From assembly GCA_030683105.1 (NCBI GenBank), contig JAUXMZ010000075.1, positions 17,545-81,544 of the forward strand: a DNA stretch of 64,000 nucleotides, read 5' to 3'. Numbering within the stretch: position 1 is the first letter of the stretch; the number at the start of each line of letters is the position of its first letter. The stretch comes from Burkholderiales bacterium. Lineage in GTDB: Bacteria; Pseudomonadota; Gammaproteobacteria; Burkholderiales; SG8-41. Below, piece by piece: positions 44,299 to 64,000 of this stretch. The position numbers and the translations under genes are program-made. The notes under the pieces are model-generated. The model was not told where the DNA came from. It worked only from the letters and a program-made list of their open reading frames with translations, and ran no database searches.

Positions 44299-45399
44299 TT
44301 ATAATCGTATTGAAAACACGGAAATCGTCTCCATTAAGCCGCGCAATTCCATATTGCCGCGCGGTACGACGCGGCTTGCGGGCACCAGCTTGCGGATCGA
44401 CTCGAAGAGTTCGCCCGAAACCAGGGCCTCGCCCGCCACTGCTGCCTGCATGAGGCGCGAAGCGATATTCACCGTGTTGCCGATCACGGTGTAGCTCATG
44501 AAATTCGGCGAGCCTACGTTGCCGATGACGGCCTCGCCGCGGCACATCCCGATGCCCAGGCCGCCGGTGATGTCGTAGTGTTCGCGCCAGCGTGCCGCCA
44601 CCGACCCGAAGCGCGACTGCATCTCCTTGGCGGTGGCCCAGGCGCGCGCCGCGGCATTGGGCTGCGGAAAGGGCACGTTGAAGCCCACGAGCAGGCAGTC
44701 CCCTGACATATTGAAAATCGTGCCGTCGTAATGGTGAGCCGCTGCGGTGAGCGCCGCGAAATACTCGTTCAGCATTTCCACGAGCGGTTCCACGTCGATT
44801 ACCTCGGTCATGTGGGTAAAGCCGCGCAAGTCAGCGAACATGACCACCACCTCGGCGCGCTGCGCCTTGGCGCCGAATGGCACGGTTTCGCTGATGATGC
44901 GTTCGACCAGGCGCGGCGAGACATAGCGCGAGAACGCCTTCTGGATCGACTCGCGGTGCGCTGCCGCCGCGAGCGTGTTTCTCATCCGCAGCGCCAGTTC
45001 GCTGGGGTCGACAGGCTTGCGCAGAAAATCGGTCGCCCCGAGATCAAGTGCTCTCAGCTTTGTTTCTGGATCCTCGGCGGTAGTAAGGACGATGGTCGGA
45101 ATGTGTTTCAGCACAGGGTCTTTCTGCATCTCTGCAAGTACGTCAAAGCCGGTTACCTTCGGCATATTGATGTCGAGCAGCAGGACTTTGGGACGCTCGC
45201 GCCGCAGCATGGCGATGGCGGAGGTGGAGTCCGAGGTCGACGTGAACCGACTGAATCCCGCCTGCTCGAGAAATGCCTGGGTGAGCTCGATCACCAGCGC
45301 CTCGTCATCGACCATCGCCACGAGAGCCTCGCCCAGATCGCCCAGGTTCATGCTCCCGGATTGGAGCAATACTTCGTCCGCTTTTATTGGTTCGCTCAT
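44299..45399 (-). CDS. Response regulator receiver - class III nucleotidyl cyclase
   Basis: REC (VDDE, LLLDINMP, KP) plus cyclase (FADLRGFT, GDC, GNTVNIASRL). Confidence 0.93.
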   Translation of the reverse strand: MSEPIKADEVLLQSGSMNLGDLGEALVAMVDDEALVIELTQAFLEQAGFSRFTSTSDSTSAIAMLRRERPKVLLLDINMPKVTGFDVLAEMQKDPVLKHIPTIVLTTAEDPETKLRALDLGATDFLRKPVDPSELALRMRNTLAAAAHRESIQKAFSRYVSPRLVERIISETVPFGAKAQRAEVVVMFADLRGFTHMTEVIDVEPLVEMLNEYFAALTAAAHHYDGTIFNMSGDCLLVGFNVPFPQPNAAARAWATAKEMQSRFGSVAARWREHYDITGGLGIGMCRGEAVIGNVGSPNFMSYTVIGNTVNIASRLMQAAVAGEALVSGELFESIRKLVPASRVVPRGNMELRGLMETISVFSIRL

Positions 45400-45421: not shown

Positions 45422-47917
45422 TCAGGCGACCGCCGATGTCTCCTGCGGCGCGATGACGCGCCGTGCCATTTGCCGCAATTCACCCAGGATCTGTGCCACC
45501 CGCTCGCCTTCGGCGGCCTTGGCGGCGGTCTCGAGCTGCACGGCCGGCGCCATGAACACATCGTAACCCATGGAACCCGCGGACCCCTTGAGCCAGTGGG
45601 CAAAGTTCGCGATCTCCACGTAGTCGTTCTGCGATTCCATCTGCTGCGTCTCGACGAGCCGCTCGTGCAGCCTCACCACGAACTTGCGCAGGATAGGCTG
45701 CAACCGCTTCTGTCCGGCTAGGCGAGACGTGATGGACGTTACCGCTGTGTTGTCGGCGTTCGCCTGCGGCGCGTCGACTGTCGAGTTGATGGCGCCCTCA
45801 GCCGCCGCCGGATCAATGCGTTTACCGCCCAGCAGCAAGGCTATGCTGCGGATCAGCCCATCGATGTCGATAGGCTTGGTCAGGTATACGTTGCAGCCCG
45901 CCTCCATCATCTGGGCTTCAAATCCACTCATGGCATTCGCGGTCAACGCGACGATCGGAATCTTTATGCCACGCTCGCGAAGCGTGCGGGTCGCGGTAAA
46001 ACCGTCCATGACCGGCATCTGCATGTCCATGATGATGAGATCGAATCCGCCCTTCATGGCCATCTCGACGGCGACCTGGCCGTTCTCGGCCTCTTCCACC
46101 CAGAGGCCCTGTTGCGAGAGCACCAGCGACACCAGCTCGCGGTTCTCGGCGCCGTCGTCGGCGATAAGAACCCGCGCCGGGGGAATGCTCCAGCACTCCT
46201 TCACCTCGGCCATGTCTTCGTCAAGATGGGCATCGATCTGCTCGGGTGTGAGCATCGGCACGCCTTCCAGCGGCCCCGTCTCGAAGGTCACCGTAAACAC
46301 GCTGCCCTTGCCCACCTTGCTCGCCACGGTGACATCGCCGCCCAGCGCCCGGGCAAACTTTTTGCTGATCACCAGCCCCAAGCCCGTGCCGCCGTATTTG
46401 CGCGAGATCGAGCTGTCGGCCTGCACGAAGGCCTCGAACAGCGCGCCGATACTCTCCTGCGGAATGCCAATGCCGGTGTCGATGACGTCCAGCGCATAGT
46501 GCGGTGAATTGCCCGGCAGGAACCGGGCACTCACCCGTATGCCGCCGTGATCGGTGAATTTGATCGCATTGCCGAGCAGGTTGAGCACGATCTGGCGCAA
46601 CCGCAGCGGATCGGACCGGACCGTTTGCGGCACCGGGCCTTCAGCGGCAAACCCGATGCTGATCATCTTCTCGCGCGCCCTGACCTCGAATTCGCGCACC
46701 GCCTGGTTCACGATCGTATGCGGCGCACAGGAAATAAGCTCGACTTCGAGCCGCCCCGCCTCCACTTTGGACAAGTCCAGAATATCGTTGATCAGCGCAA
46801 GCAGGTGCGTACCGCTGTTGTATATGGTGTTGAGGTGCTTGGTCGTCTCGCGCTCGTTCTTGCCGAAGCCCCGCCGCAACAACTCGGTGAAGCCGAGTAT
46901 CGCGTTCATCGGGGTGCGGATTTCGTGGCTCATGTTCGCAAGAAATTCGCTCTTGGCACGATTTGCCGACTCGGCTTCGTCGCGAGCGAACTTGAGCTCG
47001 ACCTCTTTTTTCTCGAGTTCGGTAATATCCTCCAAACTGATCAGCACGCCGCCGGGTTTGCTGCCGGCGCCCAGCACCGGCGAGCAGTTCAACAGAAACG
47101 TGCGCAGGGTGCCGGCAGCATCCTTAAGACGTATGGTCTCGTTGCGCTGTATCGCCGCGTCGTTCAGCGCCTTTGTCCATGGATAAACCACTGCCTCGCC
47201 CGCGGGCGTTGCCGTGGCCCAGGGAATGGCGGCCACGCCGGTGCCGAGCATCGCTTCCGAGGATTTCCCGAGGAGATGGGCAAAGGACTCATTCGCCAGC
47301 ACGATGTTCTGGTTCCGGTCGATGATCAGCAGGCCCTCGGTCAGGGTATCGAGCGCCGCGCGCACGCGGCCCGGGATCGCGCGCGACGGGTCCAGTTGGC
47401 GCAGCACGCGACCGAGATAAAAATAAAACGCAGTGAGGCACAGCACGAAGATGAAGGCCAACAGCAGGACGCCGGGCCATTCCAGGATGCCGCGAATCCC
47501 GGGGCTGATCAGGGGCTCGTAGCGCATCTCCAGCTGGCCCCAGCGGTGCTGCTCGGCCCAGATCGGCACCACGAGCTGCGTATCGGTAGAGAGGCCGCCT
47601 TCCATCGGTTCCCAGCGCGTTGCGTGCTCGCCTGTCACGACGACGATGCGCCCGTCGCGGTCGCGCACCGCGATCGAGAGGATCTCCGGATTGCGAGCCA
47701 TGACGAAGCGCAGCACGGATGCAAGTCGTCTTTCCTCTTTAGTGGTCATCAATGCTGTCGCACTGGCAGCCAGGGATTCTGCCAGGCTCACCCGCGCGTG
47801 GCGTTGCGCGCTCAGGCGGTCCGGAACGAATCCCAGCAGCATGGCGAACACCACCGCAGTGGTCACGATCGCGGTGAGGCCAATCGCAACGTGCATTTTA
47901 GTGCTGAATATTTTCAT
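45422..47917 (-). CDS. Hybrid sensor histidine kinase (TM-PAS-HisKA-HATPase-REC-Hpt)
   Basis: [44 protein letters not shown] and Hpt AHWLKGSAG motifs. Confidence 0.95.
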
Positions 47918-50900
47918 GTGCGCTTCGCGTCTACGGGGACCTCGGAAAAAGATGCGATGGCCTGTTCGTCTTCCTCACTGGTTTCGTCATCCTCGTCATC
48001 CACGCGCGCGAGTATCGGCAGCGGGTCGAGCAGCCGCCATGCCGGAAGGGCCGAGAGCATGCTTGCGGCAAGCGCGCCACCGCGGATGAGCCAGATCACA
48101 TAGGCGGCCGTCATGCTGAGGCTGCCGGCGGTGAGCGTGGCGATGGTACGCGTCTGGATTTCGTCCTGCTCGCGCAGACTGTCCTGCAGGCGCGCCAGGT
48201 CGACGCCGAGTCCCACCGCGCCAGCCAAACGTCCCTGTTGTTCGCCCAGTTGGAAAAGATCCAATGGCCGCACCTCGATCTGTTTGAGGACGTCGGCAAT
48301 CAGTTCGCGTACTACCTCTGCGCCTGGCGCAGCAATCCCGTAGGTCTGGAGCCGGTACTCTGGAAGTCCGGCACTGGCGGCGAGCATCTGCAGGCTGCCG
48401 CCGATCGATGCAAAAACCGAGCTGTTCACGGCCAGGGGCAGGAATTCCGCGTCTATCGGCAAAGATGTCCCGCCAGCGGGCACAACCGGGCGGCCTGTAG
48501 TCGAGGCCGGCTGAGACTGCTGCGGCGCGTTGCCCCCGGCTTGCGGGGTAACGACCACTGTCGCGCCGGGCGCGGCCGGAGAGGCGGATTGCTGCGGGCT
48601 GGTGCTCGGCGGGAGCAGGTCGACAAGCGTAATAACGCTCACGGCGAGGGCATGCGTGACGACCGGAGACGACGCGGCGCCGTCGCTCAGCTCAAAGCTC
48701 ACCGTGCGGGTTCCGTTGAACGGCACCGCGCTCGCATTGGAATAGGTCACCGCGCGCAGCGCAGCCTGCCATTGCGCCAGTGTCGCCGTCGCGCCCGCCG
48801 AGTTCAGGCTCAGCGCCCCGCTCGCGGCGTTGTAACCGCCGGCAATGTTGCCCATCGTCGCCGGGTTGTTGGTGAAGCCGAGCGCGTCTTCCGCGGCCCG
48901 GAATCCGGCGCCGATCGAAACCGTCGCGCTCGCAAGCGTGACGTTGTCAAGATCGGCGACCGCCACATTGTCATCCACGAGTATCGGCACGCCCGCCGTG
49001 ATATAGGTCGCCGTACCAGGGCTTGCCGTCACGACCGGCGCGTCGTTCACCGAGGTGACAGCCACCGACTGCGTCGAGGCCGCCGAACTGCCTCCCTCGC
49101 CGGTCACCACGACGCTCACCGTGCGAACCGCGGTGCTGGGCATATCGCTCGTATTGGTATAGGTCACCGAACGCAGCGCCGCCTGCCACTGCGCGAGCGT
49201 CGCCGTCGCACTGGCCGAGCTCAGGCTCAGCACCCCGGTCGCGGCGTTGTAGCTGCCCGAGATGTTGCCCATCGTCGCCGGGTTATTGGCGAAGCCGAGC
49301 ACATCTTCCGCGGCTTGCCAGCCGGCGCCGATCGAAACCGTCGCGCTCGCGAGTGTCGTGCTGTCCGGATCGCTCACCGTCACCGCGTCATCGAGAACGA
49401 CCGGCGCAGACGCGACGTTGTTGCCTTCAGTGAAGGCCGTCGTCCCGCCGCTCGCGGTCACCGTCGGCGCGACGTTCGGCAAGACCGTGATGGCCACCGC
49501 GTCCGAATCCGAGAGAGACCCGCCGGCCCCCGTATTGCCTAGGTCGCTGCTGGTAATCGACAACGACGCCGCGCCGCTGTAGTTGGCACCCGGCATGAAG
49601 CTCAGCCCGTTCAACGCTGCGTTGATCGCCGTGACCGTGCCGCTGAAAGTCATCGCGCCATCCGCGGTGCCATCACCCGCACTGAAAGTCAGTCCGGCGG
49701 TGCCTGCCAGGGTGATGTCGCCGTTGGTACCGTTCAAGGTGACCTGCACGGAGCCCGCGCCGGCATCGGCGTCCCCGACGGAGATCGCGTTGCCGTTGCC
49801 CACCGAGAAAACCAGCGCAGAGTCCTCGTTGGCCGACTGCGCACCGGGCACCGCGTTGACCGGCGCGTCGTTCACCGGGGTGACCGTCACCGTCGAGGTC
49901 TGCGTCGCAGCCGTCAGTACTCCGTCATGGGCCAGCACCGTCACCGCGCGGCTGACCGTGCTCGGCGCCTCACTGATGTTGGTGTACTGAATCCCCTGCA
50001 GAATCGTCTGATAAGTCGCCACCGTGGCCGGCCCCGTGATCGACAGCACCCCGCTCGCCGCCGCGTAGCTCACCGTCAGCCCCGCGCCGCCCGTCGCCGC
50101 CGCCGCATCGAGCGCGAGCGACTCCACCGCGTCGCCATCGGGGCGCGCCGTCAGTGTCACGATCAGCGAGGCGAGGTTCGCCGAATCCACGTCCGCCAGC
50201 GTGCCCGCCGGCGCAATCAGCACCGGCGTCTGCTCGGTGAACGCCACCGTCACGTCCTGGCCCGCACTTCCAGCGTTCAGATCCACCACCGGCGCATCAT
50301 TCACCGCCGTCACCGTGATGCTCGAAGTCTGCGTCGCGCTCGGCGTGGTCCCGTCGCTGGCCACTACCGTCACCAAGCGGTCAGTCGTGGTCGGCGTCTC
50401 GCTCGTGTTGTCGTATCGAATGCTCTGCAGGATCGACTGATAGGTCGCCACCGTGGCCGACCCCGTGATCGAGAGCACGCCGGTGCCGGCCGTGTAGCTC
50501 ACCGTCAAACCGCCCGTCACCGTCGCCGAGAGCGACTCCACCGCGTCGCCGTCGGGCCGCGCCGTCAAGGTCACCGTCAGCGAGGCGAGGTTCGCCGAAT
50601 CCACGTCCGCGAGCGTCGCCACCGGCGCTATCAGCACCGGCGTCTGCTCCGTGAACGCCACCGTCACGTCCTGGCCCGCACCGCCCGCGTTCAGATCCAC
50701 CACCGGCTCGTCGTTCACCGCCGTCACGTCCACCGTGATCGCGTTCGGCGCCGCAGCAAACGCGTTCGCCTGGTCACGCACACTGAACGTGAAGCTCGCG
50801 TAACCCACACCGTTGCCGTTCAACCCCGGCTCGAACGTCAGGTTCGGAATGCTCGCTGCCGTGATCACCTCTGTCGCCGTCACCGCCACGCCCGAGAGCT

Positions 50901-53034
50901 TCAGCGTGCCCGCGCCAGGCAGCGCGTCAATGCGCACCGCACTCAGGCTGTCTCCCGCATCCACATCGCTAAAGCCGAAGTCCGCCGCACTGAACACGTA
51001 GGCCGTGTCCTCGTTCGTCGTCACCGCCTTGTCCGCACCCGTGGGCGCGTCGTTCACCGCCGTCACGGTAATGGTCATCGCATCCGTATCCGATTGGGCG
51101 CCACCGGTGCCCGTGTTGCCCTGGTCGTTCGTCGTGATCGACAACGACGCCCCGCCGTTGAAGTTTGCGGCCGGTATGAAGCTCAGCCCGTTCAGCGCGG
51201 TGTTGATCGCCGCCACCGTGCCGGTGAAGGTCATCGTGCCATCCGCCATGCCGTCGCCGACACTGAAAGTCAGCCCGGCGATGCCCGCCAGGGTGATGAC
51301 ACCGTTTGTGCCGGTCAGCGCGACCTGCACCGGATTCGTGCCCGCATCGACGTCCGCGATGGAAATCGCGTTGCCGCCGGCCACGGAGAATACCAGCGCC
51401 GTGTCTTCGGCGGTCGACTGCGCGCCCGGTACTGTGTTCACCGGCGCGTCGTTCACCGCCGACACCGTGATAAACGAGAACCGCTCCACGCTCGGCGTGG
51501 TCCCGTCGCTGGCCACCACCGACACGATGCGGTCGGTCGTGGTCGGCGCATCGCTCGTGTTGTTGTACTGGATCCCCTGCAGGATCGTCTGGTAGGTCGC
51601 CACCGTGGCCGGCCCCGTGATCGAGAGCACCCCGGTCGCCGCCGTGTAGTCCACCGTCAGCCCCGCGCCGCCCGCCGCGGCCGTCGCCGCCGCATTCAGC
51701 GCGAGCGACTCCACCGCGTTGCCATCGGGCCACGCCGTGATCGTCGCCGTCAGCGACGCCAGGTTCGCCGAATCAAAGTCGACGATCGTGCCCGACGGCG
51801 CAATCAACACCGGCGTCTGCTCGGTGAATGCCGCCACCTCGTCCTGCCCCACACCCGCCGCGCCGTTGAGATCCACCACTGGCGCAGGGTTCGAGACCAC
51901 ACGGAAGGCTAGGTCCTTCGCGGGCTGCGCGGTGGCGTTAGCGAAGAAGGTACCGCCGGGGTATCCGGGAGAGGCGACTCCCACATAAACGTTTCCCCCG
52001 CCGACGCCCTTGACGCTGACGTAATAGGTCGTGCCGTCGGCGAGCGTCGCCGGCGCGGAAAGCGATACGGACATCCAGGCCTCCGATGTGCCGAGGCTCC
52101 TGCGCGCGACGGTTCCGGTCTCAATAATGCCACTACCGCCGCCAAGACTACTGCGCAGCTCGATGGTAATGTTGCCTCCCGCAGGGCTGACGTTCTTGTA
52201 CAGAACGAGGTCGATCTGGTCGACAGAGTAAAAGCCCGCTCCGCTGGTGTACTTGAACGACTGACTCCATGTGCTGCCGCTTCCGGAAATCTCGTAGACG
52301 TTGTCGGCCATGCTGGCGAAGGACGGCTCGTAGGACGTCAATACGATGCTCGGCAGCAGGTGGGACCAGGCGTCCTGCTCGCTTACGCTCAGCGCGACCG
52401 GCACGTCGATCGCACCGGTTGCATATTCCAGTTTCCAGTCGCCGCCCAGGCTCGTATGGCCGGTCGCGTCGTCCGAGGCGGCGACATCAGCCCCGGTCAG
52501 GCGCGCGAGCGTATCGGCCAGCAGCCGTCCCTGCGCCGTTGCCGCGACATCGCAGCCGTAAAGGAGGATATCGGCGTCCGCGGTCAGCGCCTTCGCCCAG
52601 CTTTCGACCCGGTCCGGATTGCCTTGAAGCGAATCGGCCGTGACCAGTTCGTTGCCCAGCTGGATGACGCCGTCGCCGCCGTGGCCGATGATATGCAGCG
52701 CAGCCACGTTCTCGCGGCCCGCGAGCGCCTCGGAGATCTGCGCCAGTCCATCCCGGCCGGCATCGAGCATGACGACATCGACCTGGCGTCCGCTTTGCGC
52801 GGTGATGTCCTGGACGAGAAGCGCGTAGTCAGGCGTGCGGGCATCGATGAATACAATTTCATGCGGGGCGTTTTGCACCGCCTGCTCGTTCTGGGCCGCG
52901 AACTCGAGATGGGGATCGACGACGCGTTGCTCCGCGGCGCCCGGCCCGACCACCGCCGAGGCCAGCAGCGGACCGAGATCCGCCGAGTACAGGATCCGTG
53001 GCTCGAGTGATTCTATGGTCGGGCGCTGGCGCAT
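47914..53034 (-). CDS. 1706-aa surface/adhesin-like protein: LEPR-XLL motif, DUF4347, Ig/cadherin-like repeats, C-terminal membrane anchor
   Basis: N-terminal [10 protein letters not shown]; DUF4347 (VFID...LHIIGHG...LLYGC...GGDWKLE); repeated VNDAP units; C-terminal YVIWLIRGG...[14 protein letters not shown] plus acidic tail. Confidence 0.9.
48625..51882 (-). repeat. Intragenic tandem domain repeats (order A-B-C-A-A-B-D-D)
   Basis: A ([20 protein letters not shown]) at about 51451-51882, 50299-50706 and 49870-50292; B (DAPVN.VPGAQS) x2; D (ATVSIGAG...NNPATMGNI) x2. Copies share long DNA identities. Confidence 0.88.
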
Positions 53035-53882
53035 TATCGTTTAGGATCGCGTTCTGCGACGGGGGGGTTGGCGTCGACACCGAGGTCGACCTTGCAACGC
53101 GGCCCGGCTGGCAGCGAGTAGTTCGGATTCGGCAACTCGAGCCTGATCCGGAAGGTATTGCTCGGGCCATCGATGATCGAATCGACCAGCACCACTTTCG
53201 CCTGCCTGGGCTTGGCGTTGGGCAGCTCGGGTGTGACCGTGAGCGACGAACCGACCTTTATGGTGCCGTAGAGCGACGCGGGAATGACGACTTCCACCCG
53301 CAGGGGATTGGTGGTGGCGACGCGCACGATCGGCTTTTCCTCGACCCGCTCGCCCCCCGACATGTAACGCTCGACGATGACGCCATCGGCCGGGCTGCGT
53401 ATGGTCCGCAGCTCGAGCTGCGCTTCGGCGAGTTGCAGCTCGCGTCCCCAGATGCGGCGCTGATCCTTCGCCTGCACCAGCCGCTGTTCGGCCACCTCGG
53501 CTTCCGCGCGCGCCTGCTCCAGCGCCTGATCGGAGATGAATTTTTTGCTCACCAGATCCTGGGCGCGCGCAAGCTTCTGGCGCGCGAGCTCGTAGTTCGA
53601 TTGCGCGGCCTGGATTTCCGCCGACACCTTTGCCCGGCTGGAAGCGACGCCCACTGCAGCCCGCTCGACATCGGCGCGCAGCATGGCAACGACCTGGCCT
53701 TTGGCAACGCGGTCGCCACGCTCGACCTTGACCGCTTCCACTACGCCGATGACCGGGCTGCCGACATCGACCATGCGAGACGGTTCGATCAGGCAGCCCA
53801 GCGGCTGGGCGCCGCTCACCCAGGGACTCGCTGCGCTGAGGAGTGCTGCAAAACCTATTCTTGCTGCGCTGCGCATAGTCAT
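53034..53882 (-). CDS. Membrane fusion protein (HlyD/RND adaptor family)
   Basis: Signal peptide; VGSPVIGVVEAVKVERGDRVAKGQVVAML, IRSPADGVI and SNTFRIRL motifs. Confidence 0.9.
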   Translation of the reverse strand: MTMRSAARIGFAALLSAASPWVSGAQPLGCLIEPSRMVDVGSPVIGVVEAVKVERGDRVAKGQVVAMLRADVERAAVGVASSRAKVSAEIQAAQSNYELARQKLARAQDLVSKKFISDQALEQARAEAEVAEQRLVQAKDQRRIWGRELQLAEAQLELRTIRSPADGVIVERYMSGGERVEEKPIVRVATTNPLRVEVVIPASLYGTIKVGSSLTVTPELPNAKPRQAKVVLVDSIIDGPSNTFRIRLELPNPNYSLPAGPRCKVDLGVDANPPVAERDPKR

Positions 53883-55840
53883 CTGCTTGATGTCCCCATC
53901 ATCGGTTCACGATCGAACGCCTCGTCCTGCAGGCGCAGCTGAAGGCGCAGCCGGTAACGCCGTCGCCCCTCCCACCATAGTGCCACACGCGCGAGCAATA
54001 TCCCCACCCAGCGCAGGCGCAATTCCCCTGCCCGTCCTGCCCAACCCGTGATGAACGCCGGCAGGCACGCGACGACCGGCGCCGACTCGAGCGACAGCAG
54101 CGTTTCGCAGCTTCCCGCCTCGCCCCGCCTTGCGCAACGCCCCGTAAACTGGCGGTCGATGCGTCGCGAGGCATTCGCCTGGCACAGCATCACGTGCAGC
54201 CCGCCGGCTCGGGCAAGACGTTCCGCGATCGCAATGTCGGTGCCCCGGCCCGCCATGTTGGTAGCCACGGTGATGCGCCCCGCCTGTCCAGCCGTGGCGA
54301 TCACGTGCGCCTCGTGCCGGTCCTGGCGCGCATTGAGCACGACGTGCGCGAGACCGGCAGCACCCAGGTGCTGCGACAGCACCTGCGAATCGGCCACCGA
54401 GTCGGTGCCGATGAGTGCGGCACCGCCGCGCGCCTGAATGTCCCGCGCGCGCGCCACGACGAAGCGCCACCGCGCTTTATGCGTGCCGAACACCCGGGTC
54501 GGAAGCACCACCCGACGCGAAGGTTGCCGCAGCGGCACCCGCAGCACCGGCACGCCATAAACCGCGCGCAGTTCCGCTCGCGACTCGATGAGCGTTCCGC
54601 TCATGCCGCACAGGTGCAGGTAGCGTGAAAAGAAACGTTGGTAGGTAATCTGCGCGGCTGTCACGAGCTCCGCGCTTGGCCGGCACCCTTCCTTGAGTTC
54701 GATGAACTGGTGCAGGCCGCGCGACCACGCGCGGCCAGGGGCAACGCGCCCGCTCGTGTCGTCGATGATGTGCACAGCACCATCGCGCACCAGGTAGTGA
54801 TGATCGCGATGAAACAGATGAATCGCGGCCAAGGCCATGCTTAAGGCTTCCTCACGGTAGCGGCGGACGCGCCACAGGGTATCGCCATCGGTCGACTGGG
54901 TTTCGGCCTTTGCGCGGCCATGTGCGGTAAGTTCAACCGCCCGCGATTCGGGATCGGTAACAAAGTCTTCGCGCGTGATCAGGCTGCGCGCGAATGCCAG
55001 AGCTCGCGTGTAATGCTCACGTTTGCCGCGATGGTCCTCGGCGCGCGAAAGAACGAACGGCACGCTGGCCTCGTCGAGCAGCACGCTGTCGGCTTCGTCC
55101 ACGATCGCCATGCACAAACCGCGCAGCAGCGTGGCAGGCGCGTCCGGGGTCGCCATGCGATAAGCCCGGCTGCGCAGCTCGCCTTCGACATCACGGCGCA
55201 AGAGACTGTCGCGCAAATAGTCGAAGACCAGTTCCTTCGCCGTGCAATATGTCACCGCGCAGCGGTACGCGCGCCGGCGCGCATCCATATCGAGCTCCTG
55301 CGTCACGACCCCGACATCCAGCCCGAGCGCGCCGAAGATGGGCCGCAGAGCGTCAGCGTCCCGCCGGGCGAGGTATTCGTTTGCGGTGATGACATGGACC
55401 GGTACTCGGGCGAGCGCAGCGGTAGCCGCCGCCAGCGCCGCCGCCAGCGTCTTACCTTCGCCGGTCGGCATTTCAACCAGGCGACGGTTGAGCATGGCGC
55501 GAGCGGCGATCATCTGCCCGGGGTACGGCCGCTGTCCCGTCTGGCGATTCGAGATCTCGGAAAAGAGGGCAAATGCCGCCACCTGCAGGTCGTCCGCCAA
55601 CCCGCGGCGCGCGAACTGCTGGCGCACCCTGTGCACTTCGCTTGCACACTGTTCCGTAGACAAACGAATCATTGCCGGTTGCAGCGCCTCGACGGCGCGC
55701 AGGAAAGCGGCATGGGGCGGCACGCGGTTGGCAACTCGCGCTGCCCGGCGCGCGAGCCAACCGGCGCCATTGCCGCGCCGCTCGGGATAATGGCCCCACA
55801 GCACCCCCGGAATAGGCAGTTCGGCTGATCGCATGTTCAT
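53879..55840 (-). CDS. Secondary SecA-like (SecA_DEAD) ATPase lacking the C-terminal scaffold/wing domains (653 aa)
   Basis: EMPTGEGKT, VITANEYLARRD, DYLRD, VDEADSVLLDEA, GMSGT, ATNMAGRGTDI and RRIDRQ..GRCARRGEAG; the protein ends about 60 aa later. ATG 55840 overlaps the upstream TGA. Confidence 0.9.
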   Translation of the reverse strand: MNMRSAELPIPGVLWGHYPERRGNGAGWLARRAARVANRVPPHAAFLRAVEALQPAMIRLSTEQCASEVHRVRQQFARRGLADDLQVAAFALFSEISNRQTGQRPYPGQMIAARAMLNRRLVEMPTGEGKTLAAALAAATAALARVPVHVITANEYLARRDADALRPIFGALGLDVGVVTQELDMDARRRAYRCAVTYCTAKELVFDYLRDSLLRRDVEGELRSRAYRMATPDAPATLLRGLCMAIVDEADSVLLDEASVPFVLSRAEDHRGKREHYTRALAFARSLITREDFVTDPESRAVELTAHGRAKAETQSTDGDTLWRVRRYREEALSMALAAIHLFHRDHHYLVRDGAVHIIDDTSGRVAPGRAWSRGLHQFIELKEGCRPSAELVTAAQITYQRFFSRYLHLCGMSGTLIESRAELRAVYGVPVLRVPLRQPSRRVVLPTRVFGTHKARWRFVVARARDIQARGGAALIGTDSVADSQVLSQHLGAAGLAHVVLNARQDRHEAHVIATAGQAGRITVATNMAGRGTDIAIAERLARAGGLHVMLCQANASRRIDRQFTGRCARRGEAGSCETLLSLESAPVVACLPAFITGWAGRAGELRLRWVGILLARVALWWEGRRRYRLRLQLRLQDEAFDREPMMGTSSR

Positions 55841-57978
55841 GCCACCGGGTTGAAATGCTTGAGGAAGAGCTGGCGCAGGCGGCGATACCACTGCCCGGCC
55901 AGCGGTTCGGAACCCAGATCGAAGCGCACCCACACGCGCTGTCCGAGGCTGCGCAATGCTTCGCCTTGCAGTTCGAGATCAAAAAGGAACACCGGCTCCA
56001 GCGTCCGCATCCCTTCCTTGTCGGCGGGATCCGTGGCGTGGCGGCCCCCGCCGCGTTCGCCAAGCGCGGGGCTGGGAAGCGCATGAGCGGCGGCAGGCGC
56101 CGCACGCTCGAGCCGGGCCGGCATCGGCGATCCCCGTCCTGGCAACAGAACTTCAGCGCCGCGGCTGCTGGCACGCAAAAGGGGCGCACTCTCGTTGGGG
56201 ACGACCGCGCGAACGGCCGTGGGTGCCGAGCTCAGGATATAACCCAGCATCGCGCCTTTTTTCAAGAAGGCGCCTGGCAGATCCTCGCTGTGCGGCAGGA
56301 CCAGCTGACCCGTCACTTTGCTGCGCACGGTCAAATAACCGATGCGCTCCTCGATGCGTTCCAGTTCGGACTGCGCGCGGACCAGCTCCTCGGTCACGTT
56401 TTTCGCTTGCGCCGGGTCGCTCAGCAGCGACTGGTAGCGCTGCGCCTCCAGGGCCTGCACGCGCGAGCGCAAGGCGATGTGCTCGGTCTGAAGCATGGGC
56501 TCGGCAAGCTCCACCAGCGGCGTCCCGGGGTGGACGACTTCGCCTTCGCGTGCCAGAACCCGCAGGACAAAACCCTCTGTTTCCGCTCTGACCTGTGCGC
56601 GCTCGGAGGGCCATACCACCCCTTGCACGAGCAACATGCTCGGAAACGGCACGGCAAAAACCAGCACCAGCGCGCCCACGCCACCCAGTGCAGAGAAGAG
56701 CGCCGCGCGCCGTCGCGCGCGCCCCAAGGGCAGCGCGCTGAGCAACGATTGAATGGTGATGAACGCCGGGCGGATCACCATGGATACCAGCACCAGCGCC
56801 GCCGCCAGCCAGCCCAGCCATTCCGATTTGCCGCCGAGCCAGAGGATCAACGCCAGTGCCAGCGCAAGGCGATAAGCAAGCGAGGCCGGCGCGTAGAAGA
56901 GCAGCCATTTACGCTCGTGGCGCGTCATCACGGGCGCCGATGCCCGGTCCGTGCCGCCGAGCAACCGCAGCGCGAGATATGTCCAGTACGACTGACTGCG
57001 CACGGCAAGGTTGGGCATGTCCAGAAGATCACAGAACAGGTGATAGCCGTCGAAGCGCAGCAACGGGTTGCCGTTGAAAAGGAGCGACGACGCGCCGCAC
57101 AAGAACAGCGTCACGAACGCAACGTCGCTCAGCAGACCCGGTTCAACCTCGAGCCATAACCAGAGCGCGACCACCCCAAGGCCGAGTTCCACCATGATCC
57201 CTGCCGCGCTGACAGCCGCCCGATGCCAGCGGTCGCGAAAGGCGTTTGCCGCCGAGGCGTCGACATAAGGTGCCGGCATGAAAAAAAGGAAGGTCACGCC
57301 CATCTCGCGCACTTCGCCACCCCCTCGCCGCACGGCGATGGCATGCGCCAACTCGTGCAACCCCTTGATGACGGGGTAGCAAAACCAGGCGAGGATGAGA
57401 TAGTACGTCGTCGACATGTATTTCGCAGCGTGTGCTGCAAGCGCACTCCAGTTCATGGCGACAGCAACCACAGCCATTACCACTGCGGCCGCCCAAAGTG
57501 CCAGCGTTGTCGGGCGCAGCAGCGGACGCAAAGCCGGCTCCAGACGATCGAGCAGGCTCGACGGATCGAAAAGCGACACGGGAAAAGCCAGCGGGTTCAC
57601 CCATGGCCGACGGTTGCGCGCGCGCTTGGCACGCTCACGGAAAAGACCGGCGATATCCGGCGTGGTCTCGAACTGCACGAGCTCAGCCTCGCTCAGCCGC
57701 GAGAGGATGCGCACCACCTCGTCCTGCGTCGGCGCATCGTCGCCGAATTTTTCCAGGAGCAGCGTCCACACCTGGTTGACCGACGTGCGGCCATCGAGGC
57801 GCCCTATGAGTTCGTAGGCCGGTCGGTTGATCCGGTTCTGCCGCCCATCGGTTCCGTTGATCAACAGATACCAGGCCTCGCCTTGATAGATCTGTCGCTG
57901 CACACGCACAGCAGCCCGCAGCCGCGGATGCAAGTCGCTTACACGGTACCAAAGCGGGCTGAAGAGCGATTCGGCCAT
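55837..57978 (-). CDS. PqqD/RRE-like domain - M50 (site-2) metallopeptidase - MFP-like fusion
   Basis: N-terminal RLDGRTSV..V...L...DEVVRILSRL (PqqD-like); HELAH and NPLLRFDG (M50 Zn ligands); multiple TMs; biotinyl-lipoyl/coiled-coil MFP region. Confidence 0.85.
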   Translation of the reverse strand: MAESLFSPLWYRVSDLHPRLRAAVRVQRQIYQGEAWYLLINGTDGRQNRINRPAYELIGRLDGRTSVNQVWTLLLEKFGDDAPTQDEVVRILSRLSEAELVQFETTPDIAGLFRERAKRARNRRPWVNPLAFPVSLFDPSSLLDRLEPALRPLLRPTTLALWAAAVVMAVVAVAMNWSALAAHAAKYMSTTYYLILAWFCYPVIKGLHELAHAIAVRRGGGEVREMGVTFLFFMPAPYVDASAANAFRDRWHRAAVSAAGIMVELGLGVVALWLWLEVEPGLLSDVAFVTLFLCGASSLLFNGNPLLRFDGYHLFCDLLDMPNLAVRSQSYWTYLALRLLGGTDRASAPVMTRHERKWLLFYAPASLAYRLALALALILWLGGKSEWLGWLAAALVLVSMVIRPAFITIQSLLSALPLGRARRRAALFSALGGVGALVLVFAVPFPSMLLVQGVVWPSERAQVRAETEGFVLRVLAREGEVVHPGTPLVELAEPMLQTEHIALRSRVQALEAQRYQSLLSDPAQAKNVTEELVRAQSELERIEERIGYLTVRSKVTGQLVLPHSEDLPGAFLKKGAMLGYILSSAPTAVRAVVPNESAPLLRASSRGAEVLLPGRGSPMPARLERAAPAAAHALPSPALGERGGGRHATDPADKEGMRTLEPVFLFDLELQGEALRSLGQRVWVRFDLGSEPLAGQWYRRLRQLFLKHFNPVA

Positions 57979-59433
57979 CTAGACTCCCAGGGACCAGGTC
58001 ACGAGGCGCAGCCACTCGATCGCGCGATGCGTTGCGATCCAAAGCACGGAGCGCTCGCCGGTGGCGACTTTGGCAACGCCGCGCATCCCGGGTCGCAACA
58101 TGTTGCCCGGCGTATCAAACACCCCCTCCACCTCGAAGTAATTTCGTCCCTCACCCGCCACCGCCATGGGCAGAATGCGGCTCACGCGAAACCCGTGCGT
58201 CTCGCCAGGCGTCGCGGCTATCGCGAGGCGACCGGGGAGTCCGGTCCGCAGTTGACCAACATCGCGCTCGTCGACTTCGACTATCACGCGGAAGCGCTCA
58301 TCCGGCGCCAGCGTCATGAGGACTTCGCCGCGCTGCACTGGCGCACCGAGCGACTGCGAAAGATCGCCCTTGATCACCACGCCGTCGAACGGTGCCCGGA
58401 TCTGCGCACGCTGGATGTGGTTATTGACCAGCGTCAGCTGCGCCTGCGCCTCTGCCGCCTTCGCATGATGGATCACAAGCTGCGTTCTGTCTGACCGTGC
58501 AAGTGCCGCCCCGTAAAGGTTCTCTTCCTGCGTCAGCTCGCTTTGGCGTTTGGCGCGTTCAGTCTGCAGGTCACGCTGGGATAACTCCGCGATGATCTCG
58601 TCTGCGTGCACCTTGTCGCCGGGACGCACATTGACCTGTTCGAGGAAACCGTCGATCGGCGCCGCCACGATGCGCTGAATGAAGCCTTCAAGGCGTGCCG
58701 GCGCGCTGACGTGATAGGACACGGGGACAAACATTGCGGCCGCAACAGCAACGACGGCCAAGCTCGCCAGTCGCGTACCTGCACGGGCCGATCCGGCGAT
58801 ACGGGTGGCCGACGCACGCCAGTCATCAAGCGCGACCCTCAAAAAGGCGCGCTGGCTCTTTCTTTTCAATTCGAGCAGCGGCGCGAGCAGGCAGGCAACG
58901 TCCTCGCTAAACGCGACATCTGTTCGACTGAACACCTCGCCTGCGCGCTCCAGCGTAATGGCACCGACGGCGCGTCCGGCATCGACCAGGGGAACGGTAC
59001 ACACGCCGCCGCCGAGCAAGGCATGCACCTCGCTATGGGCAAGGGTCACCGACAAACTGGAAGCGTCCTCGGGCGGCAATACAATAGTGGTCGCCTGCTC
59101 TATCGACTCGTCCATGGCGGCGCCGATTTTCTCGAACAGAGCATGGCGGCGGTCGAATTCAGCACCATGCGAGGTCGCAATGACACGAATGGCACCGCGC
59201 TCGAGCCAGCCTACCGTGACCCGGTCGCAACGCTGCGCTTTCGCCAGTTCATTGGCGAGCGAAGCGGCGGATTGCGCCAACCCCTCCTGGGACAGCACAG
59301 CCGCCTGCACCTCGAGAATGACTCCCGCCGCCGTTATCGAACCGGCAGCCCGTTTTTTATTCGGCTCCATGGGAAGTTCGTTACGCATATTCCATGCCAG
59401 TTTTGGGGGCGATGGTTTTTCAAAGCTCGACAA
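57979..59433 (-). CDS. GAF domain - membrane fusion protein (HlyD family)
   Basis: GAF (CDRVTVG...VCTVPLVDAGRAVGAITLER), TM helix, VAAPIDGFLEQVNVRPGD, IRAPFDGVV. Start may be 59388 or 59370. Confidence 0.87.
   Translation of the reverse strand: MSSFEKPSPPKLAWNMRNELPMEPNKKRAAGSITAAGVILEVQAAVLSQEGLAQSAASLANELAKAQRCDRVTVGWLERGAIRVIATSHGAEFDRRHALFEKIGAAMDESIEQATTIVLPPEDASSLSVTLAHSEVHALLGGGVCTVPLVDAGRAVGAITLERAGEVFSRTDVAFSEDVACLLAPLLELKRKSQRAFLRVALDDWRASATRIAGSARAGTRLASLAVVAVAAAMFVPVSYHVSAPARLEGFIQRIVAAPIDGFLEQVNVRPGDKVHADEIIAELSQRDLQTERAKRQSELTQEENLYGAALARSDRTQLVIHHAKAAEAQAQLTLVNNHIQRAQIRAPFDGVVIKGDLSQSLGAPVQRGEVLMTLAPDERFRVIVEVDERDVGQLRTGLPGRLAIAATPGETHGFRVSRILPMAVAGEGRNYFEVEGVFDTPGNMLRPGMRGVAKVATGERSVLWIATHRAIEWLRLVTWSLGV
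59385..59399 (-). promoter_or_regulatory. Possible sigma54 -24/-12 element
   Basis: Minus strand TGGCATG-GAAT-ATGC with correct GG-N10-GC spacing; overlaps the uncertain N-terminus of the first operon gene. Confidence 0.25.
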
Positions 59434-61134: not shown

Positions 61135-64000
61135 GTGAGCGACGACACCCCCAAAACCAGCCGACTGCGCGCCATTGCCACATCCAAACTGGCGATTGCC
61201 GGCGCGACCCTGCTGCTCGTTTATACGATTAGCGGATTCCTGCTTGCGCCGTGGCTGATCCGGCAGCAGTTGCCGTCACTGATCGATAAGCATCTGGGCG
61301 CGCAAGGATCGGTGTCCGCAGTACGCATCAATCCCTTCCTGCTGACCTTCGAAGCTACCGACCTGACGATTACCGAAAAAGACGGTACCCCGGCCTTGCA
61401 GGTGGGCCGCATCTTCGTCGATTTTGAGGCGAGCAGCCTGCTGCGCCGGGCATGGACCTTCCGCCAGATCCAGATCGAGCGCCCGGTCATCCATGCCGAA
61501 CTCGATGCCAAAGAAAGTTTAAATCTGGCGCGATTGATGAAGTCTGCATCAACGGACACGATGCCTTCTGCCCGGCAGGCGGCGGAATCCACGCAACCGC
61601 CGCGAGTGCTGTTGCAGCATTTCGCGATCTCCGGCGGCACGTTCAGTTTTACTGACCGCACCCTTGAACCTGCAGCCAAGGCGCAGTGGGCCCCGGTAAA
61701 TGTCGAAATGCACGATGTGTCGACCTTGCCCGACCATCGCGGCGAGCATGCACTCACGGCCCGACTGGCTGGCGGCGGCAGCCTACAATGGCAGGGCAAG
61801 TTCACGCTGGCGCCGATGGACTCCAGCGGGTCGATCACGCTGAAAGACGCCAAATTGGCGACACCCTGGCAGTTCGTGCGCGATCATCTGACGATCGCCG
61901 AGCCCGCCGGTTCGTATGAACTCGGGTTGCGCTACCGGCTGCGCTACGGCAACGGCGCGCTGGATCTGCAGGCAGACGACCTCGAATTCCGGGCAAAGGA
62001 TGTTGCGATCGCACAGCAGCAGGGCGGCGCAACGTTGCTCAAGCTCGCGACGATAGCTTTCGAGGGCGGCAGCTTCGATTTACGGCAGCGCAGCCTCGCC
62101 TTCAAGGAGGTGCGCATTGCCGACGGCGCGCTCGGTGTCGTCCTCGATCAGGTAGGCAAGCCGGACTGGTCCAAACTGGTCCTCGCGCCTGCCGACGCCC
62201 AGCCTGCTGCGGCAGAGGCTCCGCCCGCTGCGAATAATGTGGCAGCTAAAGCGTCCTGGCAGATAGCACTGCCCAAAGTCAGCATAGGCCCATTGGCGCT
62301 CGCGGTGACGGACCACAGCCGGGTTAAACCGCTGCATGTGACGATCGCCAGCGCACAAGCCGGTTTCGGCGTCGCCGCCGCGGTAGGCAAGGAAATCCAG
62401 GTCACCATCGACAACGGCGCGCTGAAAATTGACGATGTCCACATCCGCTCCGGCGATGCCAAAGAGCCGCTGATCACGCTGGCCGCTGCCGAACTTGCGG
62501 GCGGCGCATTCGACCTCCAGCAGAAAACCGCACGCGCGCGGCTGCTGCGGCTGTCGGGCGGCAACACGCCGGTCGTGCGCGAAGCCGATGGCAGCCTCAA
62601 CCTGGCCGGCGCGTTTGCCGCTCGCCGCGACGAACCGCCGCAGGATTCCGGCTTCGACATTACGCTGGATCGCGCGGAAATCATCGGTTACGCGGTGACG
62701 TTAACGGATCGAACCTTTCAGCCGGCCGTGACCTACGATCTGGAGAATGCGCGCGTCGCGGCATCGAACATCGCGGTGCCGTTCAAAAAGGCCAGCCCGG
62801 TCGAACTCTCGTTGCGGATCAAGCAGGGCGGTGCGCTGCAGGCCAAAGGCGCCGTCGATCTGCTGCGTCAGACCGCCGATGTGCGCTTCGAGGCAACCGA
62901 TGTTGCACTGACGCCGGTCGAGAGCGTGCTCAAACGCCACACCACGCTGACGCTGGCATCGGGCAAGGCTGGCGCCAGCGGCCGCGTCATCTGGACCGGC
63001 AAAAGCAAGCCGGCGGCGATCCGCTATGCCGGCTCGGCGGCAATCACCGATGTTGATCTGAAAACCGAAGGCTCCGGTGAACGGCTGTTCAGCTGGCAGC
63101 GCCTCGTCGCATCGAACATCGATTTCGACAGCGCAGACAACCGGCTGGCCATTGCGCAGCTGAGCCTCGCCCAGCCTTACGCCAGACTGATTGTCACTAA
63201 AGACCGCTCCACCAACCTGGCAGGCATCATGCGCCCCAGCGCAAAGCCCGCCACACCTGCACCTGATGCTGGCGCACCGATGGCGATCACCCTGGACCGC
63301 GTCAGCGTCCAGCGCGGCACCATGGATTTCTCCGACCTCAGCCTGGTGCTGCCCTTCACAACCCACATCAAGGCGCTGGGCGGCTCGGCCAGCGGCCTGT
63401 CCTCGGCCCCCGACTCGCGCGCCAGCCTGAAATTCGAAGGTCGTGTCGAAGATTACGGGCTGGCGCGCGCCGAAGGCACGATCCAGCCCTTTGCGCCCAA
63501 AAAATTCACCGACATCACGGCCACCTTCCGCAATATTGCAGTGACGCCGCTTAGCCCCTATACCGCGACCTTCGCCGGCCGCAAGATCGCCTCGGGCAAG
63601 CTGTCGCTGGACCTGCAGTACAAACTCAACAACAGCCAGTTGGCCGGCGAAAACAAGGTGGTGCTGGAGCAGTTCACGCTGGGCGAGCGCGTGGACAGCC
63701 CCTCCGCGGTCGATCTGCCACTGGATCTTGCGATTGCGCTGCTGACCGACAGCGACGGCAAGATCGAGTTGGCCGTGCCGGTCTCCGGCAACGTCGACCA
63801 CCCGGAGTTCGGTTACGAACACCTGATCGGGCAGGCGATCAGCACGATGATCACGCGCATTGTCACCGCGCCGTTCCGCGCGCTTGGAGCGCTGTTCGGC
63901 GGCAGCGCCGAAACGCTGGGTGACATCGTGTTCGATCCGGGCAGTGCGCGCATCCTGCCGACCGAGTACGAGAAACTGCGGCGCGTCGCGGAAGGGCTGC
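61135..64000 (+). CDS. DUF748-domain (AsmA-like) protein, 3' partial
   Basis: Absent from the track because it has no stop in the window. GTG 61135; N-terminal TM YTISGFLLAPWL, VRINPFLL, PYTATFAGRKIASGKLSLDLQY and DLPLDLAIALLTDSDGKIEL motifs; the last line is in the same frame. Confidence 0.85.
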   Translation, partial: MSDDTPKTSRLRAIATSKLAIAGATLLLVYTISGFLLAPWLIRQQLPSLIDKHLGAQGSVSAVRINPFLLTFEATDLTITEKDGTPALQVGRIFVDFEASSLLRRAWTFRQIQIERPVIHAELDAKESLNLARLMKSASTDTMPSARQAAESTQPPRVLLQHFAISGGTFSFTDRTLEPAAKAQWAPVNVEMHDVSTLPDHRGEHALTARLAGGGSLQWQGKFTLAPMDSSGSITLKDAKLATPWQFVRDHLTIAEPAGSYELGLRYRLRYGNGALDLQADDLEFRAKDVAIAQQQGGATLLKLATIAFEGGSFDLRQRSLAFKEVRIADGALGVVLDQVGKPDWSKLVLAPADAQPAAAEAPPAANNVAAKASWQIALPKVSIGPLALAVTDHSRVKPLHVTIASAQAGFGVAAAVGKEIQVTIDNGALKIDDVHIRSGDAKEPLITLAAAELAGGAFDLQQKTARARLLRLSGGNTPVVREADGSLNLAGAFAARRDEPPQDSGFDITLDRAEIIGYAVTLTDRTFQPAVTYDLENARVAASNIAVPFKKASPVELSLRIKQGGALQAKGAVDLLRQTADVRFEATDVALTPVESVLKRHTTLTLASGKAGASGRVIWTGKSKPAAIRYAGSAAITDVDLKTEGSGERLFSWQRLVASNIDFDSADNRLAIAQLSLAQPYARLIVTKDRSTNLAGIMRPSAKPATPAPDAGAPMAITLDRVSVQRGTMDFSDLSLVLPFTTHIKALGGSASGLSSAPDSRASLKFEGRVEDYGLARAEGTIQPFAPKKFTDITATFRNIAVTPLSPYTATFAGRKIASGKLSLDLQYKLNNSQLAGENKVVLEQFTLGERVDSPSAVDLPLDLAIALLTDSDGKIELAVPVSGNVDHPEFGYEHLIGQAISTMITRIVTAPFRALGALFGGSAETLGDIVFDPGSARILPTEYEKLRRVAEGL

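Follow-up and report, generated by a model that had tools for sequence, protein, structure and literature searches.

The window analysed here, a stretch of 64,000 nucleotides from a Burkholderiales bacterium (GenBank assembly GCA_030683105.1, contig JAUXMZ010000075.1, positions 17,545 to 81,544), carries on its minus strand the gene for a large repeat protein, hereafter the cargo, which lies between the genes of a putative export machine upstream and those of a hybrid histidine kinase and a nucleotide cyclase downstream. From comparison of its sequence with those of its relatives, the LEPR-XLL tag at the N-terminus of the cargo is a label common to all passengers of this machine, and the last ~100 residues constitute a conserved module that no database model describes. 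This module is restricted to one subclass of passengers, the adhesins that carry a DUF4347 domain, and is genetically locked to the downstream kinase. The cargo is predicted to be a dedicated passenger of the adjacent machine, a prediction that is supported indirectly. We propose, with moderate confidence, that the cargo would be exported N-terminus first by the upstream machine, with its C-terminal helix serving as an inner-membrane tether that is wired to the kinase.

Signals at the two ends of the cargo

The NCBIfam model NF012209 (LEPR-XLL) matches residues 6–26 of the cargo with 25.2 bits against a cut-off of 17 (30.5 bits in a six-frame search of the genome), which bears out the LEPR-XLL leader proposed in an earlier note made from the letters of this stretch alone. 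Across 36 aligned cargo N-termini, residues E11, R13, L15, A18 and D19 are invariant. AlphaFold2 (AF2) models the tag as disordered, with a predicted local distance difference test score (pLDDT) of about 50, and likewise the variable spacer between the tag and the DUF4347 domain. The spacer contains a second, weaker ExRxL-like motif (EQRVV, residues 38–42, 52909–52923 on the minus strand) that resembles a duplicated recognition element; it reads EQRVL or EVRLL in relatives, and lies ~25 residues past LEPRIL in most cargo N-termini.

The absence of a hydrophobic Sec signal, also claimed in the earlier note, is confirmed: neither hydropathy nor Hessa-type insertion free energy (dG) scans find a hydrophobic core in the first 70 residues, where the best 19-residue Kyte-Doolittle window is 1.19 and the best dG is +9.4 kcal/mol, and the N-terminus has no RRxF twin-arginine motif of a Tat signal. 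The note had left room for a true start further upstream that would supply a Sec or Tat signal. The cargo ATG overlaps the TAA stop of the upstream membrane-fusion protein (MFP) gene (TAATG), and the stop-to-stop frame of the cargo open reading frame (ORF) has only two further codons upstream of this ATG, so there is no in-frame start that could add such a signal.

At the other end of the protein, the linker, hydrophobic segment and acidic tail described in the note are all present, but the upper bound given there for the segment (48153) is ~50 nucleotides too high for the quoted string (YVIW...PIL), which corresponds to residues 1645–1675 at 48010–48102. The whole hydrophobic stretch, residues 1631–1666, extends to 48144. 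Among 38 diverse C-termini, P1664, W1666 and D1670 are invariant, and W1648, R1651, P1671, P1673 and L1675 are at least 90% conserved. The hydrophobic tip EQAIASF has family equivalents such as DDSLESLV and DDPLEKLF, and the net charge of the 30 residues past DPLPxL averages -6.3 over 103 proteins. Conservation at both termini of the cargo is far above chance in these alignments.

A search with residues 1500–1706 returned 44 proteins, all of which carry S(V/I)GY(V/I)xWLxRGGxLxxSxLSxLPAW(R/Q)xxDPLP(I/V)L followed by an acidic run. Every one of these proteins that has a leader-like N-terminus bears a LEPR-type tag; some ten others start within the repeat body and look 5'-truncated. A profile search with the C-terminal module over 1.84 billion cluster representatives retrieved 5613 representatives at E≤1e-3 and 4559 at E≤1e-10. 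The core motif is found in 144 of the 147 top hits, ending 31–73 residues from the C-terminus in those 144. Fifteen of the 24 such hits of at least 900 residues start with a LEPR-type tag (two of them recognized by eye only), and the remaining nine, which have no leader and open in apparent repeat or body sequence, look like 5'-cut gene calls. A divergent lineage couples the anchor module with the LEPR variant WQLEPRFMFDGA, and a search with the N-terminal 240 residues (2033 hits) brought up further variants of the module, including WWASR...PAWRHIDPLPV and WWALRAGG...PAWRSFDLLPVL. Neither Pfam nor NCBIfam gives a match on the last 120 residues at E≤10, and a profile search of the PDB was also without a match, its hits to EACC1 (E 0.035) and RAD50 (E 0.23) being noise.

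The distribution of the module among passengers is narrower than that of the tag. Two giant ORFs (L101 and L102) ran past their fetched loci and were replaced by a targeted fetch of 13 predicted C-termini of tagged proteins of ~6,000–26,000 residues from machine-bearing genomes. One of these ends is masked by Ns, and none of the 12 readable ones has such a helix or tail. As all 12 readable tagged giants lack it, the module is not the general export signal of the machine, but rather an add-on of the DUF4347-adhesin subclass. That it marks one cargo subclass and is locked to the gene of the downstream kinase are points missing from the earlier note. Some giant tagged proteins end instead in a cohesin-like domain with a short basic tail.

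The upstream machine, its passengers and the linked kinase

The association of tag and machine extends well beyond this genome, which itself carries exactly one tag, one anchor motif and one machine. We fetched 80 loci with a SecA paralog like that of the machine; at 55 of them, a large LEPR-tagged ORF lies on the same strand ~1 kb downstream and starts with a basic stretch and the tag, and many of the loci without a tagged ORF have too little downstream sequence to judge. In a sample of 301 genomes from the same order, the gene for the protein that combines an M50 protease with an MFP domain is present in 57. NF012209 matches in 39 of the 301 genomes, and the M50-MFP gene accompanies it in 36 of these (Fisher p=3e-28). 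In the other three the match is weak, and for two of the three it falls within open frames of 23 and 50 residues. None of 14 control genomes was matched by NF012209. The anchor module occurs in 23 of the 301 genomes, and all but one of these have the M50-MFP gene (p=5e-17). Tagged ORFs number one to seven per genome, the largest being of 25,859 residues. Tagged frames of 8,000–25,859 residues are seen in genomes of the order (for example, G242:C1 at about 5909600–5987176), and several such giant frames lie directly upstream of a second machine subfamily, with ~40% identity to the M50-MFP protein of the present operon.

The earlier note had treated the cargo as a substrate of a type I secretion system (T1SS). 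This frame fails because the operon is without an ABC transporter, its motor is a shortened SecA paralog, and its gene set matches the module described by Kamneva, Poudel & Ward in 2015 as a conserved 'secondary SecA_DEAD' locus, for which a role in secretion was proposed from in silico analysis (PLoS One, PMC4452313). No ABC transporter domain was found in the six operon proteins or in the eight flanking ORFs scanned. Gene content therefore indicates an ABC-less module of GAF-MFP, M50-MFP with a domain like the RiPP recognition element (RRE; RiPP, ribosomally synthesized and post-translationally modified peptide), short SecA and MFP, and not a T1SS. The motifs expected of its enzymes are intact, namely Walker A (MPTGEGKT) and the DEAD-box motif VDEAD in the SecA paralog, and HELAH and NPLLRFDG in the M50 protease. 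A canonical SecA, 33.5% identical to the short paralog, is encoded elsewhere in the genome. The M50-MFP protein matches NF041824 with 159 bits, which is below the cut-off of 300, and is also matched by PF05402 (PqqD).

The cargo is also linked to the kinase (Table 1). At all 14 loci where an anchor-type cargo ends within the fetched DNA, a kinase ortholog starts between -4 and +71 nucleotides from the cargo stop; one of the 14 comes from a deltaproteobacterial symbiont and has its machine genes arranged differently. The orthologs share the N-terminal sensor with its two transmembrane (TM) helices, being 34–74% identical over residues 1–185, and no ortholog is present in 17 loci of machines without anchor-type cargo. 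This sensor (47363–47917, minus strand) has no Pfam match, and its two TM helices are predicted to surround ~115 periplasmic residues. At six further loci (L026, L033, L035, L042, L053 and L060, mostly of Thiotrichales and other gammaproteobacterial metagenome-assembled genomes), a homolog of the kinase sensor comes right after the small adaptor, with no cargo between. The cargo of those six must lie elsewhere, as it does at the Olavius symbiont locus L081 with its permuted gene order. Among cultured bacteria, Noviherbaspirillum suwonense DSM 26001 (L058) has the kinase together with a complete cargo that bears both tag and anchor, and Zoogloea oleivorans Buc, Uliginosibacterium aquaticum and Aquabacterium sp. 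CECT 9606 are further carriers.

Table 1. Features of the cargo gene and of the surrounding operon, in positions of the window.
Feature	Position	Strand	Details and basis
GAF domain + TM helix + MFP	57979-59433	-	domain scans
PqqD/RRE-like + M50 intramembrane metalloprotease + MFP, one polypeptide	55837-57978	-	domain scans
Shortened SecA paralog, 684 residues (DEAD motor, preprotein cross-linking domain (PPXD), second nucleotide-binding domain)	53879-55933	-	start codon uncertain
Small MFP (periplasmic adaptor)	53034-53882	-	stop overlaps cargo start
Cargo gene	47914-53034	-	1706 residues; LEPR-XLL tag, spacer, DUF4347, cadherin-like repeats, linker, C-terminal anchor module
LEPR-XLL tag	52957-53019	-	residues 6-26; NF012209 match, N-terminal alignment
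Variable disordered spacer	52858-52956	-	residues 27-59; alignment, AF2
DUF4347 domain	52354-52857	-	residues 60-227; PF14252, AF2, Foldseek
Repeat body	48625-51897	-	~residues 380-1470; bacterial cadherin-like/tandem-95 repeats; PF17803, NF012211
Pro/Ser/Ala/Gln-rich linker	48463-48618	-	residues 1473-1524; sequence
Juxtamembrane helix with LDxLR motif	48145-48267	-	residues 1590-1630; continuous with membrane helix; AF2, alignment
Marginally hydrophobic membrane helix (predicted)	48037-48144	-	residues 1631-1666; alignment, AF2, dG
DPLPIL motif	48010-48027	-	residues 1670-1675; alignment
Acidic tail with hydrophobic tip EQAIASF	47944-48000	-	acidic run, residues 1679-1690, at 47965-48000
Hybrid histidine kinase (2-TM sensor, PAS, HisKA, HATPase, REC, Hpt)	45422-47917	-	ATG overlaps cargo stop (ATGA)
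REC + class III nucleotide cyclase	44299-45399	-	last gene of unit

On the plus strand, at 61135–63999 and ~1.7 kb from the operon on its upstream side, a large DUF748/AsmA-like protein of >955 residues is encoded, which continues past the edge of the window. AsmA-like proteins are candidates for envelope-spanning lipid transfer.

Between the two terminal elements, the cargo consists of the DUF4347 domain and the repeat body. PF14252 covers residues 60–227 over its full length (profile positions 1–164 of 164; E 2.7e-53, 180.5 bits against a gathering score of 24.6), and the AF2 model of this region is an alpha/beta sandwich of caspase/legumain-like fold (pLDDT 90–98). The best PDB match of the model in Foldseek is the type VI secretion system effector Tce1 (9qpe_G), and legumain, caspase-3/-7 and CED-3 are also found, with E about 5e-5 to 2e-3 and TM-scores of only 0.32–0.42. 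Residues H114, H118, G119, Y159, G160 and C161 are at least 90% conserved in the domain. Of these, the pairs H118-G119 and G160-C161 may invite comparison with clan CD peptidases, on fold matches of low TM-score. The invariant D19 that ends the tag (YSAD) would suit an Asp-specific cut of the clan CD type, and self-removal of the leader is conceivable, which is pure speculation.

A separate class of DUF4347 proteins in Hydrogenophaga (P0089, P0091, P0094 and others) has the ESPR-type extended signal MNKSYRSIWN (PF13018) at the N-terminus, and a different conserved C-terminus, ...GFxAQLxxxAQWGxGRPLTRAAxR. The same passenger domain thus appears to serve another export route in this genus. As DUF4347 is paired there with an ESPR-type signal and a different C-terminus, we rejected it as part of the export signal and regard it as a passenger domain. 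The metagenomic protein P0138 joins a LEPR tag, DUF4347 and beta-propeller repeats to REC-GGDEF-EAL without a membrane helix. It would be a cytoplasmic relative if real, and is probably an assembly or gene-call chimera; we dropped it as Rosetta-stone evidence for the side on which the tail resides, since it has no membrane helix and is a probable chimera.

Proposed export and tethering, and other readings

In the mechanism that we propose, the PqqD/RRE-like domain of the M50-MFP protein would bind the LEPR tag in the cytoplasm, this domain being the most plausible binder because the protease has RiPP leader peptidases as its closest curated relatives. M50 might then clip the tag in the manner of a RiPP leader. 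The SecA-like motor would feed the chain outward, N-terminus first, via a conduit of adaptors and an outer-membrane channel, the channel coming from elsewhere in the genome. The C-terminal helix would act as a stop-transfer element and leave the adhesin tethered in the inner membrane with its N-terminus out, its C-terminus in (N-out/C-in) and its acidic tail in the cytoplasm. Helix and tail would contact the co-translated kinase, which would in turn couple secretion, display or release to a signal by way of the REC-cyclase and the GAF domain on the first adaptor. The earlier note had already suggested N-terminus-first export. The finding that the tag, and not the C-terminus, is common to the passengers fits recognition at the N-terminus, and more loosely an N-first direction, which is itself drawn from domain analogies.

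For the C-terminal helix, a role in retention is the best reading. Built on the family alignment, the AF2 model gives one continuous helix over residues 1590–1662 (pLDDT 94–98), places kinks at PAW and DPLP and leaves the tail disordered. A helical hairpin split at RGG was set aside, since AF2 gives a single continuous helix, although a monomer prediction is weak evidence on this point. The most hydrophobic 20-mer of the whole cargo is residues 1631–1650, with a dG of +1.5 kcal/mol; the conserved Arg of WLxRGG stands directly after it, a second Arg or Gln follows PAW, and the flank upstream of the helix is net negative (mean -2.4). The positive-inside rule is an established principle of membrane topology, and it favours an N-out/C-in orientation here because the conserved Arg follows the 20-mer and the upstream flank is negative. 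The same features favour the retention by this helix that the earlier note had suggested, and the hydrophobicity of the helix, being marginal, is the part that fits less well. In the second half of the helix, G1653, A1657 and S1661 form a small-residue face of the type usual where helices pack together. Marginal hydrophobicity combined with strict conservation suggests that the helix packs against partner proteins and is not simply anchored in lipid.

Several observations weigh against export with tethering as we propose it. The value of +1.5 kcal/mol (family median +2.6) is only marginal for a membrane helix, compared with -1.8 and -3.8 for the TM helices of the kinase and +2.2 for the anchor of the GAF-MFP protein, and the anchor helix may be buried in a protein complex instead of lipid. 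The strongly acidic tail, if cytoplasmic as predicted, is the reverse of classical C-terminal sorting signals. The genome has six TolC-family genes, with no outer-membrane channel gene on this contig. Anchor-type cargo is not always beside the machine, being ~360 kb away in one complete genome, and 16 of the 37 genomes with a strong M50-MFP match are without the anchor module by a first-look filter that may miss some. Finally, export direction, conduit and leader cleavage are all drawn from analogies between domains.

A bolder extension of tethering, which we regard as speculative and rather improbable, is that the adhesin acts as a trans-envelope signalling wire. Its body would be displayed outside via the conduit of adaptors and outer-membrane channel, while its C-terminal helix and acidic tail would lie in the inner membrane next to the kinase; surface binding or pulling, or occupancy of the translocon, would be read directly by the kinase and passed on through the REC-cyclase to the GAF domain of the first adaptor. 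If true, giant proteins would have a new ABC-less route addressed by the LEPR tag, and the C-terminal module would be of a new kind, with topogenic and signalling roles.

The helix could also be a substrate of the M50 protease, so that cutting it frees the adhesin in the way that LapG frees LapA. This was the proposal of the earlier note, and it is compatible with a tether. The helix does have conserved helix-breaking residues (RGG, PAW, DPLP) of the kind frequent in substrates of intramembrane proteases, the operon itself encodes M50 with its active site intact, and the M50-MFP gene accompanies the module in 22 of the 23 genomes that have it. However, the M50-MFP gene is equally present where the passengers are without an anchor, and M50 should therefore have an anchor-independent role; it has the RiPP leader peptidases as its nearest curated relatives and carries a PqqD-like domain of the leader-binding kind. 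Site-2 proteases cut helices that are N-in/C-out, whereas the anchor is predicted to be N-out/C-in, and their preference would suit a looped-in N-terminal leader better. There is in addition no homology to LapG or LapD. Regulated release by M50, which thus does not follow from the comparative data as the note had framed it, seems to us unlikely.

A route resembling that of SecA2 is less probable again. Accessory SecA2 proteins of Gram-positive bacteria hand their substrates to the housekeeping SecYEG, and with this precedent the short SecA, a genuine homolog of SecA that includes a preprotein cross-linking domain, might pass the tagged protein to SecYEG, the helix being an ordinary stop-transfer and the adaptors acting after translocation; nor is an inner-membrane pore protein evident in the operon besides M50. 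Against this, the paralog has 684 residues compared with ~800 positions in curated SecA models, and it appears to be without the C-terminal half because its match ends at about model position 490–550. The tag offers SecY no hydrophobic core, three adaptors in one operon suggest a tripartite conduit, and folded repeat proteins of 10,000–26,000 residues would need to cross the periplasm unaided.

It is very unlikely that the C-terminal module is instead a secretion signal for C-first export according to T1SS logic, with the LEPR tag serving in retention or maturation. It is true that T1SS signals are classically C-terminal, adaptor-type proteins are present and the module is highly conserved; however, tagged passengers of the same machine family share the tag and are entirely without the module, there are neither an ABC transporter nor RTX repeats, and a membrane helix with a locked kinase is no soluble signal. 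As to the repeats, the earlier note was right that RTX nonapeptides are missing: the 1706 residues contain a single GGxGxD (residue 784), and a Pfam scan gives no HemolysinCabind match. That the cargo is not exported at all, but is a tail-anchored inner-membrane protein with a cytoplasmic repeat body, could appeal to the missing classical signal peptide, to an acidic C-terminal tail that is easily translocated and to the fusion of tag and DUF4347 with REC-GGDEF-EAL in P0138, and is hardly credible given cadherin-like, Ig-like and beta-helix repeat bodies typical of extracellular proteins, the tight linkage to adaptor proteins and a SecA-type motor, and the nature of P0138 as a single sequence without a membrane helix and a probable chimera.

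Comparison with known systems

Giant LEPR-tagged proteins, which reach ~26,000 residues in related genomes, are widespread. The N-terminal tag offers a searchable address label that leads to a candidate machine, one described computationally in 2015, and the C-terminal module, with its ~5,600 clusters, separates adhesins that are kinase-linked and predicted to be tethered from other passengers. The system may represent a new secretion route and a direct link from a surface adhesin to two-component signalling, and both tag and anchor could be used as topogenic signals in annotation pipelines.

NF012209 (LEPR-XLL) and PF14252 (DUF4347) are database families known by name only, and both match here above their cut-offs. 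Full-text literature searches on the tag, DUF4347 and the module returned no mechanistic work and nothing that ties the tag or DUF4347 to an export route, and the C-terminal module and the kinase lock appear in no paper found by these searches. A 2026 preprint (10.64898/2026.03.19.712371) describes LEPRxLL on giant Chlorochromatium proteins and ascribes their export to T1SS parts. The machine is known from one computational paper, that of Kamneva and colleagues, whose locus has the same four genes in the same order (GAF-HlyD, Peptidase_M50-HlyD, SecA_DEAD and HlyD/biotin-lipoyl) and no ABC transporter. The consulted sections of PMC4452313 name no passenger or export signal, and no kinase linkage; on our sequence comparisons, the LEPR tag, the C-terminal module and the kinase lock would be additions to that module.

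With LapA, its LapBCE and LapD-LapG partners and other T1SS adhesins, the present system would share a giant repeat adhesin, a conduit of adaptors and a TolC-type channel, a terminal retention element and a nucleotide second-messenger circuit alongside, which is here predicted. LapA itself is ABC-driven and leaves the cell C-terminus first, with RTX repeats and a soluble C-terminal signal; its N-terminus forms a plug that retains it in the outer-membrane channel until LapG, a cysteine protease of the periplasm, sets it free. The cargo has neither ABC transporter nor RTX repeats, a library scan finds no model match in it to the LapA retention module, and LapG (PF06035, Peptidase_C93) is absent from the genome, a control genome being positive in the same search. 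Its retainer is predicted to be a C-terminal helix in the inner membrane. Thus, the analogy with LapA and LapG drawn in the earlier note holds at the level of logic and does not extend to the components.

Systems of RiPP export and maturation, with PqqD-like RREs, daptide-type HExxH leader peptidases and peptidase-containing ABC transporters, resemble the present one in their short non-hydrophobic leader and in the fusion of a PqqD/RRE-like domain and a membrane metalloprotease to export components. They differ in that the substrate here is a repeat protein of 1,700 to 26,000 residues and not a peptide, and that modification enzymes are missing; binding and cleavage of the leader are predictions in the present case.

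A further comparison is with sorting signals such as LPXTG/sortase, PEP-CTERM/exosortase and GlyGly-CTERM/rhombosortase. In these, too, the very C-terminus of surface proteins bears a conserved signature plus a membrane helix and co-occurs with a membrane machine dedicated to it. The sorting-signal models of NCBIfam and Pfam give no match on the last 120 residues of the cargo at E≤10, and its tail has a net charge of about -6. In the known signals, the order is motif, helix and short basic tail, the proteins that bear them are exported by Sec, and they are cut by a dedicated transpeptidase or protease. In the cargo, by contrast, the signature lies within and after the helix, the tail is strongly acidic and ~40 residues long, and the locked partner is a histidine kinase.

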